64,000 nt of DNA, from assembly GCA_001793945.1 (NCBI GenBank), contig MGIW01000005.1, positions 57,923-121,922 on the forward strand, read 5' to 3'. This DNA comes from Candidatus Wolfebacteria bacterium RIFOXYD12_FULL_48_21. Lineage in GTDB: Bacteria; Patescibacteriota; Minisyncoccia; UBA6257; UBA9933. The notes beneath the pieces are model-generated. The model saw nothing but the letters and a program-made list of their open reading frames with translations. It was not told the origin of the DNA and searched no databases. Both the position numbers and the translations under genes were made by a program. How positions within the stretch are numbered: the stretch's first letter is position 1; each line of letters opens with the position of its first letter. Below, piece by piece: positions 3,105 to 10,181 of this stretch.

Positions 3105-3524
3105 ATGAAAAAAAATCTGACAATTTGGGCAATACTCGCGTTGAGCACTATTGGCTTCATTGACTCGGTCTATTTGGCGCTAAAGATCCTTTTGAGCTCT
3201 CCCATAACCTGTTCTGCCTTTGGCGGCGGGTGCGATATTGTCGCGCAATCAAAATATAGCGCCATAGTGGGCGTACCGCTCTCGATGCTGGGTGTGTTGT
3301 TCTACGCGGCGATTATTATCGGCATAACATATTATCTGCAAAGGCGAACAATTAAGTCCCTGGAGTGGATAGCATACGGCTTGCTATTTGGCGGATTGTT
3401 CTCGATTTACCTGCTTGCTCTGCAGGCGTTTGTCATTGAAGCATGGTGCTTGTATTGCGTGGTGGCAGACGCAATCGGGATCGCAAATGCGCTATTGGCG
3501 ATCCGGCTATTGCGAATGAAATAA
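3105..3524 (+). CDS. Vitamin K epoxide reductase (VKOR) family membrane protein
   Basis: Four predicted TM segments. Loop cysteine pair CSAFGGGC. CLYC (CXXC) in the last TM. Sits immediately downstream of the DsbA-like gene. Confidence 0.75.
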   Translation: MKKNLTIWAILALSTIGFIDSVYLALKILLSSPITCSAFGGGCDIVAQSKYSAIVGVPLSMLGVLFYAAIIIGITYYLQRRTIKSLEWIAYGLLFGGLFSIYLLALQAFVIEAWCLYCVVADAIGIANALLAIRLLRMK

Positions 3525-3637: not shown

Positions 3638-4771
3638 ATGAAATTAATCAAGCGAATCGCCCAGAAAAATATAGAAAAGGAGCTTTTTAAAGGGAGGGTT
3701 GTTGTAATTTATGGGGCAAGGCAGGTGGGAAAAACGACACTCGCGAAGGAAATTCTTACAAAATATCCCGATGATGGGGTGTATATTAATTGCGAGCAAT
3801 ATGAGGTGAGGCAGGGATTATCCGTGCGGAGCGCAGAAAGAATAAAAGCATTTATCGGAAATAAAAAACTTGTCATACTTGATGAAGCGCAACAAATACC
3901 GGAGATAGGGTTGATTTTGAAGTTAATGGTAGATACATACCCGGAGATGCAGGTCATCGCGACGGGGTCTTCGAGCTTTGATCTCATGAATAGCGTTGGA
4001 GAGCCGCTTGTCGGTAGGGCATCATGGTTCACGCTTTATCCGATCAGTCTTGAAGAAGTCGAACAGGACAAGACATTGTTTGGTGTTGAAGCACATCTTG
4101 AACATATGATGCGGTTCGGATCATACCCGGCGATCTGCTTTGAACCAGAGGAGGGTGCGATGCGAAAATTGGATGCGCTCGCTTCGGGATATTTATATAA
4201 AGATATTCTTGCATTTGAGGGGATACAAAAATCGGGCATATTGGTAAAGTTGACGCAACTTTTGGCACTGCAGGTAGGGAATGAAGTATCGCTCAGCGAA
4301 CTGGCGACGGTATTGGGAATTAGTAGACAATCGGTTTCGAAATATATAGATATTTTGGAAAAATCATTCATCATATTTCGACTACGGGCGTTGAGTAGAA
4401 ATTTGCGGAAAGAAATAGCAAAATCGGAGAAGGTGTATTTCTATGATCTTGGGATCCGTAACGCGGTCATTAGAAATTACAACCCACTGGCGATGCGTAA
4501 TGATGTCGGCGCATTATGGGAGAATTTAATGATCGTCGAGCGGATGAAGCGGAACAGTTACCATGGGCATTTCGCCAATATATATTTTTGGAGAACATAT
4601 GATCAAAAAGAAATTGATTTGATCGAGGAATATGGGGGCCGCCTACAGGGGTATGAATTTAAATGGGGGAATGCCACAGCGCGCGTACCGAAGCTATTTA
4701 TCGAGACATATAAAGATGCTACATGGCAGTTGGTGAATCGTAACAACTATTGGGATTTTATCGGAAAGTAA
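3638..4771 (+). CDS. AAA-type ATPase with C-terminal DUF4143-like domain (COG1373-type ATP-binding protein)
   Basis: Walker A GARQVGKTTL. DEAQ-like Walker B (ILDEAQ). Length and layout match archaeal-type ATPase/DUF4143 proteins. Confidence 0.65.
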   Translation: MKLIKRIAQKNIEKELFKGRVVVIYGARQVGKTTLAKEILTKYPDDGVYINCEQYEVRQGLSVRSAERIKAFIGNKKLVILDEAQQIPEIGLILKLMVDTYPEMQVIATGSSSFDLMNSVGEPLVGRASWFTLYPISLEEVEQDKTLFGVEAHLEHMMRFGSYPAICFEPEEGAMRKLDALASGYLYKDILAFEGIQKSGILVKLTQLLALQVGNEVSLSELATVLGISRQSVSKYIDILEKSFIIFRLRALSRNLRKEIAKSEKVYFYDLGIRNAVIRNYNPLAMRNDVGALWENLMIVERMKRNSYHGHFANIYFWRTYDQKEIDLIEEYGGRLQGYEFKWGNATARVPKLFIETYKDATWQLVNRNNYWDFIGK

Positions 4772-4778
4772 TGGAGAA

Positions 4779-4810
4779 CCCCCGTTCCTTGCTCAGGAAC
4801 GGGGTTTTTT
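4779..4810 (+). terminator. Hairpin plus T-run terminator (copy 2 of the CCCCGTTCCT palindrome)
   Basis: cccccgttccttgctcaggaacggggtttttt. Confidence 0.7.
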
Positions 4811-4824
4811 GGTATGGTATAGGC

Positions 4825-7800
4825 ATGTTAAAGGGAAGAAAAAAGTTTACTCCGAGCGAAGTGGAATCGGAAGTTTTGGAGTTTTGGAAACAAGACAAAA
4901 CATTCGAACGATCGGTCAAGAAACCTGCTCCGAAAGGGGAGTATGTATTTTACGATGGACCTCCGTTTGCGACCGGATTGCCCCACTATGGGCATATTTT
5001 GCAGAGCGTCATCAAGGATGTTGTTCCGCGATATCAGACCATGAACGGCAAGCGCGTGGAGCGTCGCTGGGGTTGGGATTGCCACGGATTGCCGGTTGAG
5101 AATTTGATCGAAAAGGAGCTGGGGCTTGAGACGAAAAAAGATATCGAAAATCTTGGTGTAGAGACCTTCAACGAAGCCGCGCGAGGCAGTGTTATGTCAT
5201 ATGCGCACGATTGGAAGAATATCATTCCGCGCATCGGCCGCTGGGTGGAAATGGAGAAAGACTACAAGACCATGGATGCGAGCTTTACTGAATCGGTAAT
5301 GTGGGTATTCAAGACGCTTTATGACAAAGGGCTGGTCTACGAAGGTCGCAAATCCATGCATGTGTGCCCGCGTTGCGAGACATCGTTGTCCAATTTTGAA
5401 GTTGCGTTGAACTATAAAGATATCGATGATATATCGACCTATGTAAAGTTTGCCGTTGCGGGAGAAAAAAATACCTACTTCATCGCATGGACGACCACGC
5501 CATGGACATTGCCGGGCAATGTGGCGCTGGCGATCAACGCAAAGGCGGAATATGTGACTGTTGAAGCAAGGACTGAAGCGGGTAAGGAGCGCTATATTCT
5601 GGCGAAGGATCGTCTTGCTATTATCGATGGGGAATATGTGATCGTAAAAACGGTAAAGGGCAAAGAGTTGGCCGGTACGGCATATGTGCCGCTGTTTGAT
5701 TACTATCAAAAAGGCGAATTGGAAAACCGCGAAAATGGCTGGAAGGTCTATGCGGCCGATTTTGTGACCATGGAAGACGGTTCGGGTATTGTGCATATCG
5801 CGCCGGCGTTCGGTGTCGACGATATGGAGGTAGCTCGCAAAGAAAAACTGCCATTTGTGCAGCATGTGGCCATGGATGGGCATTTCAAGCCGGAGGTGAA
5901 GGATTTCCCGGGATTGGCGGTAAAGCCGCGGGGAGACCACAAGGCGACCGATATAGAGGTCATCAAGTGGCTTGCGCACCATGGTAATTTGCTCAAGAAG
6001 CAAAAGCTGGTCCACTCATATCCGCATTGCTGGCGCTGTGAAACGCCGTTGCTGAACTACGCAACATCATCATGGTTCGTGGAAGTGACCAAGATCCGCG
6101 ATACAAAGAACGGGTTGGTGGAAAATAATAAAAAGGTCAACTGGATCCCAGGGCATATCAAAACGGGGCGTTTTGGCAACTGGGTGGCAGATGCGCGCGA
6201 TTGGGCCGTTTCCCGCTCGCGATTTTGGGGTGCACCCATTCCGGTATGGCGTTGCGATGAGTGTGGCGAGATAAAAGTAATGGGTTCCATTGCGGATATC
6301 AAAAAGAATGTGCCGAAATCGGGTAATGTTTATTTTACATTGCGCCATGGCGAGTCGCAGAATAACGCGCTCAATTTGGCAAGCTCAAATCCGAAGAACA
6401 CATATCATCTGACAAATAAAGGCAAGGCGCAGGTAGAAAAATCGGTTAAGGCATTCATAAAGCAGCTCAAGGGAAAGAAGATCGATCTGATCGTATCGTC
6501 TGATTTTGCACGGGCTCACGAAACGGCGGAACTCACCGCAAAGCTGCTCGGGTACGGAGCGAAGATCGTCATCGACAAGCGGTTGCGCGAGATCGACTGC
6601 GGCATTTTTGATGACAAGCCGATCGGTGAGTATCATGCGTATTTTGCATCGCTGGAAGAAAAGTTTATCAAGACCGCGCCGAAAGGAGAGAGTTTGAACG
6701 ATGTAAAAAAGCGCATAACGGAATTCGTATACGAAATTGATGCGAAGTATAAAGGGAAAAACATTTTGATCGTAAGTCATGAGTATCCCATTTGGGCGCT
6801 CTTTGCGGGTGTGCAAGGGTTCGATGGCAGAAAAGCGGTCGCCATGCGCAAGCCGAACAAGGACTTTATCGTCAATGCCGAAATAAAGAAATTGGATTTC
6901 AGCGTTATTCCGCATAACAAAAATTATGAACTGGATTTGCATCGCCCGTACATCGACCGGGTGGAATTGCAATGCGCAAAAGGGCACGCCATGAAGCGCG
7001 TACCGGATGTGTTTGATTGTTGGTTTGAGTCGGGTTCCATGCCGTATGGACAGGCACATTATCCGTTTGAAAATAAAAAGAAATTCGAAAAGAATTTCCC
7101 GGCAGAGTTTATTGCCGAAGCGGTTGACCAAACGCGCGGCTGGTTCTATACACTTATGGTTTTATCGACGGGCTTGTTCGGAAAGCCTGCATTTAAGAAT
7201 GTCATAACGACAGGATTGGTTCTTGCCGAAGACGGACAAAAGATGTCCAAAAAGCTGAAGAACTACCCTGATCCGATGACGATCGTGGACAAGTATGGCG
7301 CGGATGCGCTGCGCTTGTATTTGGTGTCATCGCCGATCGTTCGGGGAGAGGTGCTTAATTTTTCGGAAAAGGGTGTTGATGAATTGTACAAGAAGGTCAT
7401 TTCGCGCCTATGGAATGTATATAGTTTTTATGACATGTACGGGAAACAACTGATAACCAAAAACCAAAAACCAATAACGAAAAATGTGTTGGATACATGG
7501 ATGCTGGGTCGGCTTGATGAATTGATCGCCGAAACGACCGGCGCCATGAATAGCTATGAGCTTGACCGCGCGGTGCGCCCGATCGGTCAGTTTGTCGATG
7601 ACCTGTCGACATGGTATGTGCGTCGCTCCCGCCGCCGGTTCCAGAAGCCGGATGACAAAAAAGACTGGGAGCTCGCATCAAAAACGCTCGCGTATATTTT
7701 GTTTGAAACAAGCAAAGTAATGGCGCCGTTTACGCCGTTCTTTGCAGATGCATTGTATAAGTCGCTGAATACGAAAAAGAACGCATCCGTGCATTTGGAT

Positions 7801-8352
7801 GCGTGGCCGAAAGTCACATCGTTGGCAGTTTTGAAGGCGCATAAAAAGGCGGGGGTAATGATGGCCGAGGTGCGGACCTTGGCAAGCGTGGCGCTCGCAA
7901 AGCGCGCGCAGTTGGGCATCAAGGTGCGGCAGCCATTGTCTTCATTGACGGTCCAGTCGACCGTCGCAGGATTGAAGACAAATAAGGAGCTGTTGGCGAT
8001 CCTTGCCGACGAAGTAAATGTAAAGAATATCATCATAAAGCAATCCGTCGAGGGCATTGTCGAATTCGATACGCGTATCACACCGGAACTGTTGGAAGAG
8101 GGAATCATTCGCGAAAGTGTGCGCATGATCCAAGGGCTTCGGCAGGATGCAGGCTATGAGCCGAAGGACAAAATAACCCTGTTTGTCGACAGCGCCGCAT
8201 TGGGCGATATGGTCAAAAAATATGAAGAATTATTGAAAAAGGAAGTGGGGGCAAAGGTAATCATATTTGCCCAGGATCCGGAACATATTGATGCGTACTC
8301 CGAGCTGGTGCTCGAAGGTGATCGAATTTGGTTTGGCATCAGAAGAGCATAA
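4825..8352 (+). CDS. ileS: Isoleucyl-tRNA synthetase carrying an internal histidine-phosphatase-like domain insertion
   Basis: HIGH region PHYGHIL. KMSKKL (KMSKS). Zinc motifs CWRCETP and WRCDECGE. A start at the ATG at 4825 is preferred over the track start at 4750, which overlaps the hairpin. Confidence 0.9.
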   Translation: MLKGRKKFTPSEVESEVLEFWKQDKTFERSVKKPAPKGEYVFYDGPPFATGLPHYGHILQSVIKDVVPRYQTMNGKRVERRWGWDCHGLPVENLIEKELGLETKKDIENLGVETFNEAARGSVMSYAHDWKNIIPRIGRWVEMEKDYKTMDASFTESVMWVFKTLYDKGLVYEGRKSMHVCPRCETSLSNFEVALNYKDIDDISTYVKFAVAGEKNTYFIAWTTTPWTLPGNVALAINAKAEYVTVEARTEAGKERYILAKDRLAIIDGEYVIVKTVKGKELAGTAYVPLFDYYQKGELENRENGWKVYAADFVTMEDGSGIVHIAPAFGVDDMEVARKEKLPFVQHVAMDGHFKPEVKDFPGLAVKPRGDHKATDIEVIKWLAHHGNLLKKQKLVHSYPHCWRCETPLLNYATSSWFVEVTKIRDTKNGLVENNKKVNWIPGHIKTGRFGNWVADARDWAVSRSRFWGAPIPVWRCDECGEIKVMGSIADIKKNVPKSGNVYFTLRHGESQNNALNLASSNPKNTYHLTNKGKAQVEKSVKAFIKQLKGKKIDLIVSSDFARAHETAELTAKLLGYGAKIVIDKRLREIDCGIFDDKPIGEYHAYFASLEEKFIKTAPKGESLNDVKKRITEFVYEIDAKYKGKNILIVSHEYPIWALFAGVQGFDGRKAVAMRKPNKDFIVNAEIKKLDFSVIPHNKNYELDLHRPYIDRVELQCAKGHAMKRVPDVFDCWFESGSMPYGQAHYPFENKKKFEKNFPAEFIAEAVDQTRGWFYTLMVLSTGLFGKPAFKNVITTGLVLAEDGQKMSKKLKNYPDPMTIVDKYGADALRLYLVSSPIVRGEVLNFSEKGVDELYKKVISRLWNVYSFYDMYGKQLITKNQKPITKNVLDTWMLGRLDELIAETTGAMNSYELDRAVRPIGQFVDDLSTWYVRRSRRRFQKPDDKKDWELASKTLAYILFETSKVMAPFTPFFADALYKSLNTKKNASVHLDAWPKVTSLAVLKAHKKAGVMMAEVRTLASVALAKRAQLGIKVRQPLSSLTVQSTVAGLKTNKELLAILADEVNVKNIIIKQSVEGIVEFDTRITPELLEEGIIRESVRMIQGLRQDAGYEPKDKITLFVDSAALGDMVKKYEELLKKEVGAKVIIFAQDPEHIDAYSELVLEGDRIWFGIRRA

Positions 8353-8436: not shown

Positions 8437-9252
8437 ATGATTGATATTGCAATACAGATCGTCAATTACAAAACAAAGGCATATTTATCGCGCTGTATCG
8501 AGTCGGTGCTTAAAGACATGCGGGATTCCGGTATTGTGTATCGGGTAATTGTGCTGGAAAACGGCTCAGGTGATGATCTGCGCGATCTCGAAGATAGTTA
8601 CAAAGGGGAGCTCGTGGATTTTCAGTATTCCGGTAAAAATCTTGGGTTTGGAGGTGGGCACAATGCATTGTCGAAGAAATTGGAAAGCAAGTATATATTC
8701 GCATTAAATCCCGATACGCATATAGAAAAAGGCGCCATAAAGATATTGTTTGATTTTATGGAGGCGCATCCCGAAGCGGGTATGTGCGGTCCTCGGGTGC
8801 TATTGCCTGAGAAAAATTTTTTTTGGCACAAGAAGCCATTTTGGCCGAAGCAGTTTGTCTGGAAGGAATTTTTTGAACGGTACTTCGGAATTCGTATAAT
8901 GAAAAATATTGCATTTCTTGAGCATGACCCAATTATCGGTTCGGCACTTTTTATTCGGCGCGACGCGTATGAGAAAGTGGGAGGGTTTGACGAGCATCTG
9001 TTTTTATATTTTGAGGAAGGAGACCTTTGTAATTCATTGAAGAAAGAGGGGTATGGTATATTTTTTGTATATGATGCCATAGTGGTTCATTTCTATGGGA
9101 AGAGTGATGTGTCAAAAAGAAGGAAAGTAGAGGAGTTTAAAAAGTCCCGAAGGTATTTCTATATAAAATGGTATGGCGAGGAAAAAGCAAAAGAAATGTT
9201 GGCGAAGGAAGAAAATATACTGAACGACAAGCGCCTTGAAAAGGTGCTATAA
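8437..9252 (+). CDS. Glycosyltransferase family 2
   Basis: N-terminal IVNYKT...SV motif. DxD-like ALNPDT. GT2-like fold, about 270 aa. Confidence 0.65.
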   Translation: MIDIAIQIVNYKTKAYLSRCIESVLKDMRDSGIVYRVIVLENGSGDDLRDLEDSYKGELVDFQYSGKNLGFGGGHNALSKKLESKYIFALNPDTHIEKGAIKILFDFMEAHPEAGMCGPRVLLPEKNFFWHKKPFWPKQFVWKEFFERYFGIRIMKNIAFLEHDPIIGSALFIRRDAYEKVGGFDEHLFLYFEEGDLCNSLKKEGYGIFFVYDAIVVHFYGKSDVSKRRKVEEFKKSRRYFYIKWYGEEKAKEMLAKEENILNDKRLEKVL

Positions 9253-10181
9253 TGACAGATATGCTATCCACCATATTAGTTTCACTGCCGATATTTCTGA
9301 TTATCTTTGCCGGCTGGCTATTCCAAAAGGCAAAGGTCATGGAGGGGGACTGGGTCCATCAGGCAAATGCATTTGCCTACTACGCGGCCTTGCCAGCGCT
9401 GATCGTGGTCAGTCTGTGGGATATCAATTTTCGAAGTCCCGAGATCATACGGCTTACGCTGGCGAGCCTCGCGAGCATGACGGCATTTTTGGCTGTGTTA
9501 TTTGTGGTGCTTTCGTTGTTTACTGCTATGAAGCGCGACACCAAGGCGGCAATCTTTTTGACTGCGGCAACTGGTAATACGCTCTACATGGGCATTGCAT
9601 TGGTTGAAGTGGGATTCGGGAAAGGGCAGGTGCCGGCGGCGGCCTTGGTCGGGAATATATACCTCATCATCCCGTTGGTACTTTCTATATTGGTCGTGCG
9701 CTATTGGCACACCAAAGACCATGGTATTAAGGATGAACTGATGGCATTTTTAAAAAATCCGCTGGTGTTGTCTGTGGCGCTTGGTATAGCGTTGAGTTTT
9801 GTGCCGGTGGAGCACGCAGCTGTGGCGAGCCTAAAAAAGACCATGCAAATGCTCGGCAGTACATCTTCGCCCGTTGCGTTGTTTGCATTGGGAGGGTTTT
9901 TGTACGGGAAGTTTCTCAAGAAGGACCTGCATATGGTCATGTTTATCACGGCGCTGAAAATGATCGTATTTCCGCTGGTGGTCTTCGGGATATATGCATA
10001 CTTCGCAAAGGGTGTATCTGCGGAGATACCGGTGCTGCTGGCGACTATGCCGGTTGCGGTAACCACATTCGTCATAGCGGAAAAGTTCAAGTTGAACACG
10101 GCGTTGGTGGGTAACGCGATCGTGTTTGCAACACTTATGTCGTTCATAACCGCCCCGATCATATTATTGCTATTTAAATAA
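9252..10181 (+). CDS. AEC family (auxin efflux carrier / malate permease-like) membrane transporter
   Basis: About 10 TM helices. N-terminal LPIFLIIFAGW motif typical of the Mem_trans family. ATG overlaps the GT2 stop (TAATG). Confidence 0.55.
   Translation: MTDMLSTILVSLPIFLIIFAGWLFQKAKVMEGDWVHQANAFAYYAALPALIVVSLWDINFRSPEIIRLTLASLASMTAFLAVLFVVLSLFTAMKRDTKAAIFLTAATGNTLYMGIALVEVGFGKGQVPAAALVGNIYLIIPLVLSILVVRYWHTKDHGIKDELMAFLKNPLVLSVALGIALSFVPVEHAAVASLKKTMQMLGSTSSPVALFALGGFLYGKFLKKDLHMVMFITALKMIVFPLVVFGIYAYFAKGVSAEIPVLLATMPVAVTTFVIAEKFKLNTALVGNAIVFATLMSFITAPIILLLFK

Follow-up and report, generated by a model that had tools for sequence, protein, structure and literature searches.

A histidine phosphatase domain nested within an isoleucyl-tRNA synthetase of Candidatus Wolfebacteria and its possible role beside tRNA enzymes

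We analyzed a stretch of 64,000 nucleotides (called the window at its full length) from Candidatus Wolfebacteria bacterium RIFOXYD12_FULL_48_21, contig MGIW01000005.1, positions 57,923 to 121,922. The ileS gene in the window encodes an isoleucyl-tRNA synthetase (IleRS) that carries a complete phosphatase domain inside connective peptide 3 (CP3) of its catalytic core. By profile, motifs and fold, the insert belongs to the branch-1 histidine phosphatase superfamily, and by the same kind of comparison its host is a bona fide type-2 IleRS. The nested architecture is present, judging from the genomes compared, in hundreds of Patescibacteria species. We give about even chances to the reading that the domain is an active phosphatase serving adenylate-forming tRNA enzymes.

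The nested domain and its host enzyme

The gene lies in a single uninterrupted open reading frame (ORF) on the plus strand, at 4750..8352 of the window. The start was placed at the ATG at 4825, from which the N-terminus of the 1175-aa product aligns with the N-termini of homologues. The features of the gene are listed below.

4825..8352 (stop codon included), plus strand: ileS, type-2 (eukaryote/archaeal-like) isoleucyl-tRNA synthetase with the nested phosphatase; from TIGR00392, AlphaFold2 (AF2) and Protein Data Bank (PDB) alignments
4825..6312, plus strand: IleRS part 1 (aa 1-496), comprising the first Rossmann half, CP core, CP1 editing domain, CP2 and first CP3 strand; from profile and structure alignments
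4981-4995, plus strand: HIGH motif PHYGH (aa 53-57)
5488-5508, plus strand: editing motif WTTTPWT (aa 222-228)
5779-5814, plus strand: editing motif GSGIVHIAPAFG (pattern GxGxVHxAPxFG, aa 319-330)
6253..6264, plus strand: first half of the CP3 zinc knuckle, Cys477-Asp-Glu-Cys480, in the flank WRCDECG; C477 and C480 are invariant in the homologue alignment
6313..6930, plus strand: nested histidine phosphatase (His_Phos_1) domain with its linkers (aa 497-702); from Pfam, AF2, fold matches, conservation and dN/dS
6343..6351, plus strand: Arg507-His508-Gly509 in RHGES, with the phosphate-binding Arg and the nucleophilic His
6511..6513, plus strand: Arg563 in ARAHETA, second phosphate-binding Arg
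6589..6591, plus strand: Glu589 in the RLRE/RLREID motif, presumed proton donor
6778..6780, plus strand: His652 in the ILIVSH/VSHEY motif, second catalytic His
6910..6930, plus strand: fusion-specific C-terminal linker Pro-His-Asn-x-Asn-Tyr-Glu (aa 696-702, context LDFxxxPHNxNYEL), near-invariant
6931..8349, plus strand: IleRS part 2 (aa 703-1175), comprising the remaining CP3, second Rossmann half, anticodon-binding domain and type-2 C-terminal domain (DUF5915); from profile and structure alignments
6973-6987, plus strand: second half of the zinc knuckle, Cys717...His721, in the rest of CP3, which begins with LDLHRPYID (aa 703-711)
From 7015, from 7120 and at 7240-7254, plus strand: motifs of the second Rossmann half, DCWFESG, DQTRGWF and KMSKK (aa 806-810), respectively

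Pfam His_Phos_1 (PF00300) matched residues 506-670 of the whole protein with E = 7.5e-30. The stretch 6313-6930 taken alone reached E = 2.1e-31 and 109.5 bits, against a gathering score of 21.7, over profile positions 4-166 of 194. The domain proper covers about 190 residues and is flanked by two short linkers. The first-pass annotation, made from the letters of the sequence, had described an insert of about 200 residues with phosphatase motifs between the CP zinc region and LDLHRPYID, continuous with the ileS frame on both sides. The profile search, the fold and the conservation agree with this description, and the uninterrupted ORF bears out the continuous frame. The limits given for the insert, 6313-6930, were right to within about two codons, and the named motifs are all present: RHGES (507-511), ARAHETA with R563, RLREID with E589 and VSHEY with H652.

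The catalytic residues were compared among 66 aligned full-length sequences with 42-95% identity in the domain. R507, H508, R563, E589 and H652 were conserved in 100% of them, G509 in 98% and N514 in 97%, and R507 and H508 were also invariant in a 94-sequence alignment that includes free-standing relatives.

The AF2 model of the isolated domain had a pLDDT of 93.6. When this model was searched against the PDB using Foldseek, 307 matches with E <= 0.001 were obtained, and all 50 listed were histidine phosphatases or mutases. The top structural matches, with TM-scores of 0.71-0.76 and 20-25% identity, were the riboflavin-pathway phosphatase 9mmh, PspA (4ij5/6), Rv2419c and PhoE (1h2e). A profile of the subfamily ranked PhoE first among PDB sequences (E = 7e-34), followed by PspA (3e-32) and CobC.

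The best NCBIfam match was NF038349, a short archaeal phosphoglycerate mutase (dPGM) model (E = 2e-25, 90 bits versus a cut-off of 225), and the second-best was NF005567 (E = 6e-23, 82 bits versus 326). The equivalog models of PspA (NF045917, 63 versus 350 bits), CobC (TIGR03162, 68 versus 163), SixA (TIGR00249, 31 versus 74.5) and GpmB (NF002901, 59 versus 261) were likewise missed. By these scores, the insert is outside every characterised subfamily tested, and its substrate specificity is not inferable from homology because no specific equivalog cut-off was reached. The base composition of the insert resembles that of the rest of the gene (GC 0.456 versus 0.493; GC3 0.568 versus 0.582).

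Alignment to solved IleRS structures placed the insert in CP3. Residue 493 of the window protein corresponds to residue 489 of human IARS1 and residue 704 to IARS1 498, with about 210 residues in place of a loop of about 8, and residue 494 aligns with residue 497 of Candida albicans IleRS, within CP3 (residues 473-534). CP3 connects CP2 to the second Rossmann half, its topology varies among solved IleRSs, and that of T. thermophilus IleRS bears a zinc motif (PMC7191050). The insert replaces a 0-8-residue loop of the CP3 zinc-knuckle hairpin and separates the two halves of the knuckle, C477xxC480 and C717xxxH721. Relatives without the second half of the knuckle are also without the first. The insert-less IleRSs of Patescibacteria read '...ELxKxS-DLH(K/R)P' at the same point (the hyphen marks the site). 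As neither these nor the solved IleRSs carry the domain, it is a lineage-conserved addition, in keeping with the first-pass annotation, and not a universal CP subdomain.

Free-standing relatives of the domain extend from 'MKLxNxYF(I/L)LRHG' to '...TGE(L/I)RKL'. The embedding takes in a whole phosphatase protein, end to end. The PHNxNYE linker is missing from the aligned free-standing phosphatases and insert-less IleRSs, whereas P696, H697, N698, Y701 and E702 are conserved in 97-100% of insert-bearing IleRSs. In the full-length model, the pLDDT of the linker exceeded 90, but it was below 50 when the domain was modelled in isolation. Since it is confidently placed only in the full-length protein, we infer from the models that this invariant linker docks the phosphatase rigidly on CP3.

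The remainder of the protein was identified as IleRS by the equivalog profile TIGR00392, which scored 867.8 bits versus a cut-off of 621.4 (E = 9e-261) and matched in two stretches split by the insert. PF19302 (DUF5915), which marks the type-2 architecture, was found at the C-terminus (E = 9e-18), and the HIGH, KMSKS and CP1 editing motifs were invariant across 102 homologues. The best PDB sequence matches were the human, yeast, Candida, P. megaterium (IleRS2) and T. thermophilus IleRSs, with E of about 1e-210 or below; the type 1 IleRS of S. aureus was a far weaker match (E = 7e-85). The full-length AlphaFold model (pLDDT 90.1, pTM 0.84) showed a canonical IleRS2 body, and superposed with TM-scores of 0.84 on P. 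megaterium IleRS2 (8c8v) and 0.90 on T. thermophilus IleRS (1ile). Because the HIGH and KMSKS motifs, the editing site, and the anticodon-binding and C-terminal domains are intact, the protein should still charge tRNA-Ile.

Two special IleRS families were considered and rejected. The mupirocin-resistance enzymes MupA and MupB (NF000257 and NF000258) scored 716 and 728 bits versus a cut-off of 1900. The GNAT-bearing family NF040702 scored 307.7 versus 1999 bits, and no acetyltransferase Pfam match was found in the window protein.

Distribution, gene context and other hosts

One representative genome per bacterial and archaeal species was scanned for the junction peptide [NDL]Y[EQ]LD[LF]HRP. The scan yielded 502 stretches, 485 of which were confirmed as relatives, and the locus statistics given here cover the best 80 loci of these. 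All 80 matched the full insert at 42-95% identity. The lineages among them are Wolfebacteria, Nomura-, Vogel-, Lloyd-, Kaiser- and Taylorbacteria, and other Paceibacterota/Parcubacteria, and one locus is on a complete chromosome (CP011209). The insert of the window is nearest to those of Wolfebacteria, with 95% identity to MGIT01000003. For 65 loci out of the 80, both junctions are spanned without interruption by one ORF of at least 1100 aa; the remainder are mostly cut by contig ends. PF00300 was also present in every one of the best full-length homologues, 120 in number and 53-100% identical. A protein identical to that of the window was found on 12 contigs from several sources; its 90% cluster includes UniRef100_A0A1F8E1V8 ('Isoleucine--tRNA ligase', Candidatus Wolfebacteria). 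With identical proteins on 12 contigs and intact ORFs in 65 other genomes, the insert is not the mis-assembly against which the first-pass annotation had cautioned. Two insert-bearing IleRSs, L016 (ORF of 1367 aa) and P0196 (1352 aa), exceed the others by 150-190 residues and may contain a further insertion.

Mean column conservation in the 66 sequences was 0.59 for the insert, 0.585 for the anticodon-binding domain and 0.48 for the C-terminal domain. Compared with the 95%-identical locus L001, the insert had a dN/dS of 0.099 and the remaining parts of the gene one of 0.029.

An intein and a split gene were also considered as candidates and rejected. No HINT or endonuclease Pfam match was obtained, the fold is that of His_Phos, and no nucleophile is present at either junction (N-terminal junction ...KKNVPKSGN...). 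The first-pass annotation had reported no intein hallmarks; this stands for the endonuclease block and the N-terminal nucleophile but not for the C-terminal side, where an invariant His697-Asn698 is present in the linker. The residue that follows is Lys or Asn (K699 in the window protein) and not Cys, Ser or Thr. Because of this, and because the fold is not HINT, the insert is not an intein. Short proteins combining PF00133 and PF00300 (P0019 and P0091) resembled split-gene intermediates, but they are on long contigs where ileS is in 3-5 pieces, a state consistent with frameshift errors or decay.

The nearest free-standing relatives of the insert are about 190 aa long and show 37-48% identity to it. 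In 8 of 8 close relatives examined, the free-standing gene (here HP) immediately precedes, on the same strand, a type-2 ileS that lacks the insert, and the gene order is argS-HP-ileS-(small gene)-recO. The gap between HP and ileS ranges from -10 to +15 nucleotides (nt) over the 8 loci, with one overlap through ATGA. More distant relatives (P0111 and P0107) have no adjoining ileS. Of the 80 insert-bearing loci, 42 have argS upstream on the same strand (10 of the 80 within 300 nt), and 39 have recO downstream (21 within 200 nt). A single phosphatase match was obtained at each locus, and that one is inside ileS. The argS..ileS..recO order is thus retained without the free gene, so that the free and nested forms are two alternative states in which this conserved gene cluster occurs. 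This order is absent at the window locus itself and at L001-L005. The ORFs in the argS-ileS gap of insert-bearing loci are heterogeneous and mutually unrelated, and no conserved extra partner was found there. In loci L081-L090 and L097-L099, the genes are smpB, infC-rpmI-rplT, argS, the phosphatase gene, ileS, a small unannotated gene (108-373 aa, no Pfam match), recO and a gene for a large DUF7619/CLIPPER-like protein.

From these comparisons, the domain is shown to belong to a phosphatase subfamily with free genes between argS and ileS in sister Patescibacteria. Trees were built by neighbour-joining (NJ) only. The domain tree sets the embedded copies apart from the free-standing ones with a bootstrap of only 57/100, and all six embedded domains checked are nearer to other embedded copies than to any free-standing one. 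The NJ tree of the IleRS body mixes the two architectures: the insert-bearing L047 groups with the insert-less L084, L086 and L088 (100/100), and the insert-less L081 and L090 group with the insert-bearing L011, L035 and L006 (67/100). A simple one-event history was rejected, as the two trees disagree on the switches between nested and free forms. The sequences may reflect one insertion followed by exchange of ileS between Paceibacteria lineages, or several switches or repeated rearrangements.

The insert was also searched against 1.84 billion cluster representatives, giving 6785 matches, 39 of them at E <= 1e-30. The best 150 of the 6785 comprised 100 with class-Ia synthetase sequence, 46 of free-standing size and 4 other long proteins. 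Among the synthetases, the phosphatase occurs at sites other than that of the window protein. The IleRS P0310 (1419 aa) has no insert in CP3 and carries two phosphatase domains, one after WFESGSMPYA (site B) and one at the start of the anticodon-binding domain (site C); its cluster has six members of the same length, on contigs of up to 1.06 Mb. P0334 carries three, at sites B and C and inside the second half of the CP3 knuckle. The ValRS-like P0305 (PPPNVTGxLHLGHA), a single sequence cut by a contig end, carries four, one after SPQWF and three in tandem after RIPVWY. The catalytic residues are kept in all complete copies. The relatives of P0310 are IleRSs of 1200-1860 aa from Gracilibacteria, Peregrinibacteria and Peribacteria, nearly all with His_Phos and many with GNAT, and some also bear P-loop kinases, DUF559 or a serine hydrolase. 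In one protein (P0449), a HAD phosphatase occupies the IleRS site where relatives hold His_Phos. Among the 4 other long proteins, a C-terminal His_Phos follows ArgRS in P0331 (junction ...APEHM-FNNSYFFLRHG) and, with the motif variant 'RHA', follows TsaC/Sua5 of the t6A pathway in P0270; both junctions read cleanly.

Several of these IleRSs combine domains in further ways. At about aa 560-760, the proteins P0449, P0439, P0450, P0474, P0466 and P0388 hold His_Phos, a HAD phosphatase or a serine hydrolase, followed in some by a P-loop kinase (AAA_18/33, weak Zeta_toxin) or GNAT, and a DUF559 endonuclease-like domain is found in the editing region. P0344 has a Y1-transposase-like (IS200/Y1) domain in frame in its editing region, the phosphatase at the window's site and GNAT at site B. 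P0472 likewise has an IS200/Y1-transposase-like domain in the editing region together with His_Phos and GNAT, plus kinase and nSTAND3 matches. The Y1-transposase-like domains of P0344 and P0472 could be either translated domains or mis-called insertion sequences.

Possible roles of the domain

By the chemistry of the family, His508 would attack a phosphoryl group to form a phospho-histidine, Arg507, Arg563 and His652 would hold the phosphate, and Glu589 would protonate the leaving group. By analogy, we infer that the domain is a working phosphomonoesterase. The associations described above suggest that phosphatase activity itself is selected and serves adenylate-forming tRNA enzymes, since the subfamily has repeatedly been joined to IleRS (at least four sites, 1-3 copies), ValRS, ArgRS and TsaC/Sua5. 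The domain would then remove a phosphorylated product or lesion that interferes with the partner enzymes, and this is probably its role. Two unrelated phosphatase folds at one IleRS site appear to be the strongest single argument, with one protein representing the HAD case. A link to enzymes of the aminoacylation type gains likelihood from the fusion and operon data, which do not specifically favour a reaction at the tRNA end; the first-pass annotation had speculated on 2',3'-cyclic or 3'-phosphate tRNA ends or a nucleotide by-product as substrate.

All partners convert ATP to an adenylate and pyrophosphate (PPi), then release AMP, and all work for tRNA. On this ground, PPi or a nucleotide by-product common to all of them is our leading guess for the substrate, although as a single candidate it is rather unlikely. 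A 3'-phosphorylated tRNA end is less likely still, and the remaining weight falls on other substrates linked to the partner enzymes. The fullest version of this proposal is that a dedicated Patescibacteria phosphatase subfamily assists adenylate-forming tRNA enzymes (IleRS, ValRS, ArgRS, TsaC), as an accessory domain or subunit, in an unrecognised aminoacylation-coupled step, such as local removal of PPi or nucleotide, or proofreading or repair of phosphorylated tRNA, with IleRS as a scaffold for in-frame grafted enzymes (phosphatase, kinase, acetyltransferase, hydrolase). We put this forward tentatively, at clearly below even chances.

Several observations weigh against a role for the phosphatase beside these tRNA enzymes. 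Insertion has occurred at scattered points of the enzyme, in CP3, in the second Rossmann half and at the start of the anticodon-binding domain, and the copy number is variable; such scatter argues against a fixed geometry relative to the active site or to the 3' end of the tRNA. Domains of the GNAT, P-loop kinase, DUF559, serine-hydrolase and even Y1-transposase-like kinds are also hosted by these IleRSs, and the enzyme may simply be tolerant of passengers. The fusions to ArgRS and to TsaC are each known from one sequence, and the former could be the product of a lost stop codon in an argS-HP operon. The fold is nearest to broad-specificity small-molecule phosphatases, at 20-25% identity only, so that specificity is again unreadable from homology. 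We know of no branch-1 histidine phosphatase that acts as a pyrophosphatase. Peribacteria, at least, encode an inorganic pyrophosphatase (PMC4736985).

A serious rival, which we nevertheless regard as doubtful, is that a housekeeping small-molecule phosphatase (PhoE/PspA/CobC-like) hitch-hikes in a permissive loop of an essential, well-expressed gene, with a metabolic role of its own and no part in the mechanism of IleRS. The nearest solved relatives are indeed broad-specificity or metabolic phosphatases, CP3 is structurally variable, and the insert evolves about 3x faster than the IleRS body. The scattered sites and the unrelated GNAT, kinase, DUF559, hydrolase and Y1_Tnp domains found in frame in IleRSs from the candidate phyla radiation (CPR) fit such a passenger as well. 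A prior argS-HP-ileS adjacency would have eased a local rearrangement into ileS. There is also a precedent in Rv2228c, in which RNase H is joined to a CobC-like phosphatase with apparently unrelated roles. However, the partners are non-random (IleRS, ValRS, ArgRS and TsaC): 100 of the 150 best representatives carry class-Ia synthetase sequence, and none of the 4 other long proteins has a non-tRNA partner. The operon link in 8 of 8 loci, with genes abutting or overlapping, the unrelated HAD phosphatase at the same IleRS site and the invariant docking linker also argue against a passenger.

Alternatively, the phosphatase could heal tRNA ends, stripping a 3'-phosphate, 2',3'-cyclic phosphate or 3'-pyrophosphate from synthetase-bound tRNA and so enabling charging. 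The host enzymes bind tRNA, and the genes of the cluster (smpB, infC, rpmI, rplT, argS, ileS) are centred on translation. Some Gracilibacteria-type IleRSs pair the phosphatase with an adjoining P-loop kinase (AAA_33/AAA_18), and a kinase paired with a phosphatase resembles T4 Pnkp, an RNA end-healing enzyme. As regards charge as a sign of RNA binding, the median isoelectric point (pI) of the free-standing phosphatases is 10.0, compared with 6.0 for the embedded ones, but the neighbouring ArgRS, IleRS and RecO proteins are equally basic and the insert of the window has a pI of 9.5. To our knowledge, no histidine phosphatase acts on RNA 3' ends. TsaC/Sua5, as one of the partners, does not handle tRNA 3' ends, and scattered sites with 2-4 copies per protein are unfit for a geometry-dependent reaction. 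We therefore consider end healing improbable.

The domain might also be a divergent cofactor-dependent phosphoglycerate mutase (PGM) that fills a glycolytic gap in some Parcubacteria. Its best NCBIfam match is the dPGM_arch model named above, and PGM was undetected in several shallow Parcubacteria clades (Jaffe et al. 2020, PMC7304191). Its scores fall far short of those required by the mutase models, at 90 versus 225 bits for NF038349 and 30.3 versus 81.7 for TIGR01258 (pgm_1), and both structure and profile searches rank mutases below PhoE, PspA, CobC and the riboflavin-pathway phosphatase. From the second catalytic His onward, mutases read HGNS(L/I)R, where HEYP or HGDP is found in this subfamily. 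A mutase is thus very improbable.

A non-functional feature, whether it arose by chimeric assembly or is a pseudogene with frameshifts, an intein, a mobile element or a catalytically dead spacer, is next to negligible: the entries with ileS broken around the domain (P0019, P0091) are in 3-5 fragments on single contigs instead of a clean split, the HN dipeptide at the C-terminal junction comes without a nucleophile at either junction or any HINT or endonuclease match, and the 65 intact ORFs in independent genomes, including the complete chromosome, the host-like composition, the invariant catalytic residues and a dN/dS of 0.10 exclude the chimeric, pseudogene and dead-domain readings.

Window surroundings and comparison with known systems

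Around ileS, the following genes were annotated in the window.

3105-3524, plus strand: VKOR-family membrane protein
3638-4771, plus strand: AAA_14 and DUF4143 ATPase with a helix-turn-helix (HTH), immediately upstream of ileS
8437-9252, plus strand: family-2 glycosyltransferase
9252-10181, plus strand: Mem_trans (auxin-efflux-carrier-like) permease

The VKOR, glycosyltransferase and Mem_trans neighbours have no obvious link to the nested phosphatase. Eight tRNA genes were found between 17130 and 59144 (Gly-GCC, Lys-CTT, Lys-TTT, Arg-TCG, Pro-CGG, Ser-GCT, Gln-TTG and Thr-CGT), of which Lys-CTT, Lys-TTT, Arg-TCG and Pro-CGG cluster on the minus strand at 24.5-27.3 kb. No tRNA-Ile gene is present within the window.

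The first-pass annotation had called the domain architecture unfamiliar, and our full-text literature searches found no phosphatase or other catalytic domain nested in IleRS. The sequences themselves have been public for years (e.g. UniRef100_A0A1F8E1V8), and one relative bears the automatic annotation 'isoleucyl-tRNA synthetase/phosphohistidine phosphatase SixA/...GNAT' from JGI. Both parts are familiar, and it is their nested arrangement, its breadth and the genetic coupling that are undescribed in the literature found. Current database labels include 'class I tRNA ligase family protein', 'hypothetical protein' and even 'GNAT family N-acetyltransferase'. Owing to such labels, metabolic reconstructions may miss embedded enzymes.

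Synthetases are among the most conserved enzymes and their known additions are mostly non-catalytic, whereas here the catalytic core of IleRS houses a complete second enzyme, which purifying selection has maintained in hundreds of species from a major radiation of uncultivated bacteria. Genetically, the two activities are tied together, as operon partner or nested domain, through repeated insertions, through the ValRS, ArgRS and TsaC fusions and through a HAD replacement at one site. Should its substrate be a product or lesion of charging, the phosphatase would represent a new accessory step of translation in Patescibacteria. Even as a passenger, it would provide a natural catalogue of permissive insertion sites in class-I synthetases and an example of streamlined genomes packing enzymes into essential genes.

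Among known phosphatases, PhoE of Geobacillus stearothermophilus (1H2E/1EBB) and PspA/iPSP1 of Hydrogenobacter thermophilus (4IJ5) share the fold, the catalytic set and the length of about 200 aa with the insert, which they match in structure with TM-scores of 0.71-0.75. They are free-standing, whereas the insert is nested in another enzyme through two linkers, and at 20-25% identity their substrates are not transferable to it. The body of the window protein has the domain order, HIGH/KMSKS motifs, CP1 editing domain and DUF5915 of type-2 IleRSs (8C8V, 1ILE, and the cytoplasmic enzymes of yeast and Candida), and its CP3 zinc knuckle is as in T. thermophilus IleRS; where the solved enzymes have a loop of about 8 residues, it has about 206 residues of phosphatase.

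Class-I synthetases are known for idiosyncratic insertions and appendages, such as the leucine-specific domain of LeuRS and the eukaryotic GST, WHEP and UNE modules, which are lineage-specific, often in the CP region and non-catalytic. In contrast to these modules, the insert is an entire further enzyme whose active site is conserved. NF040702 (IleRS, N-acetyltransferase domain-containing) is a curated precedent for an IleRS with an extra catalytic domain, although that domain is GNAT and not a phosphatase; GNAT domains co-occur with His_Phos in IleRSs of Gracilibacteria and Peregrinibacteria. In the RNase H/acid phosphatases of the Rv2228c type (NF005567), a branch-1 histidine phosphatase is likewise covalently joined to a nucleic-acid enzyme, but the fusion there is end to end and with another partner, and the insert is nested and scores below the NF005567 cut-off. 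PFKFB (1BIF and others), which was among the PDB matches of the subfamily profile, combines His_Phos_1 with a P-loop kinase in one chain, and in some Gracilibacteria-type IleRSs His_Phos is followed by an AAA_18/33 kinase. The window protein differs from PFKFB in having no kinase domain, in domain order and in context, and nothing in it points to sugar-bisphosphate chemistry.

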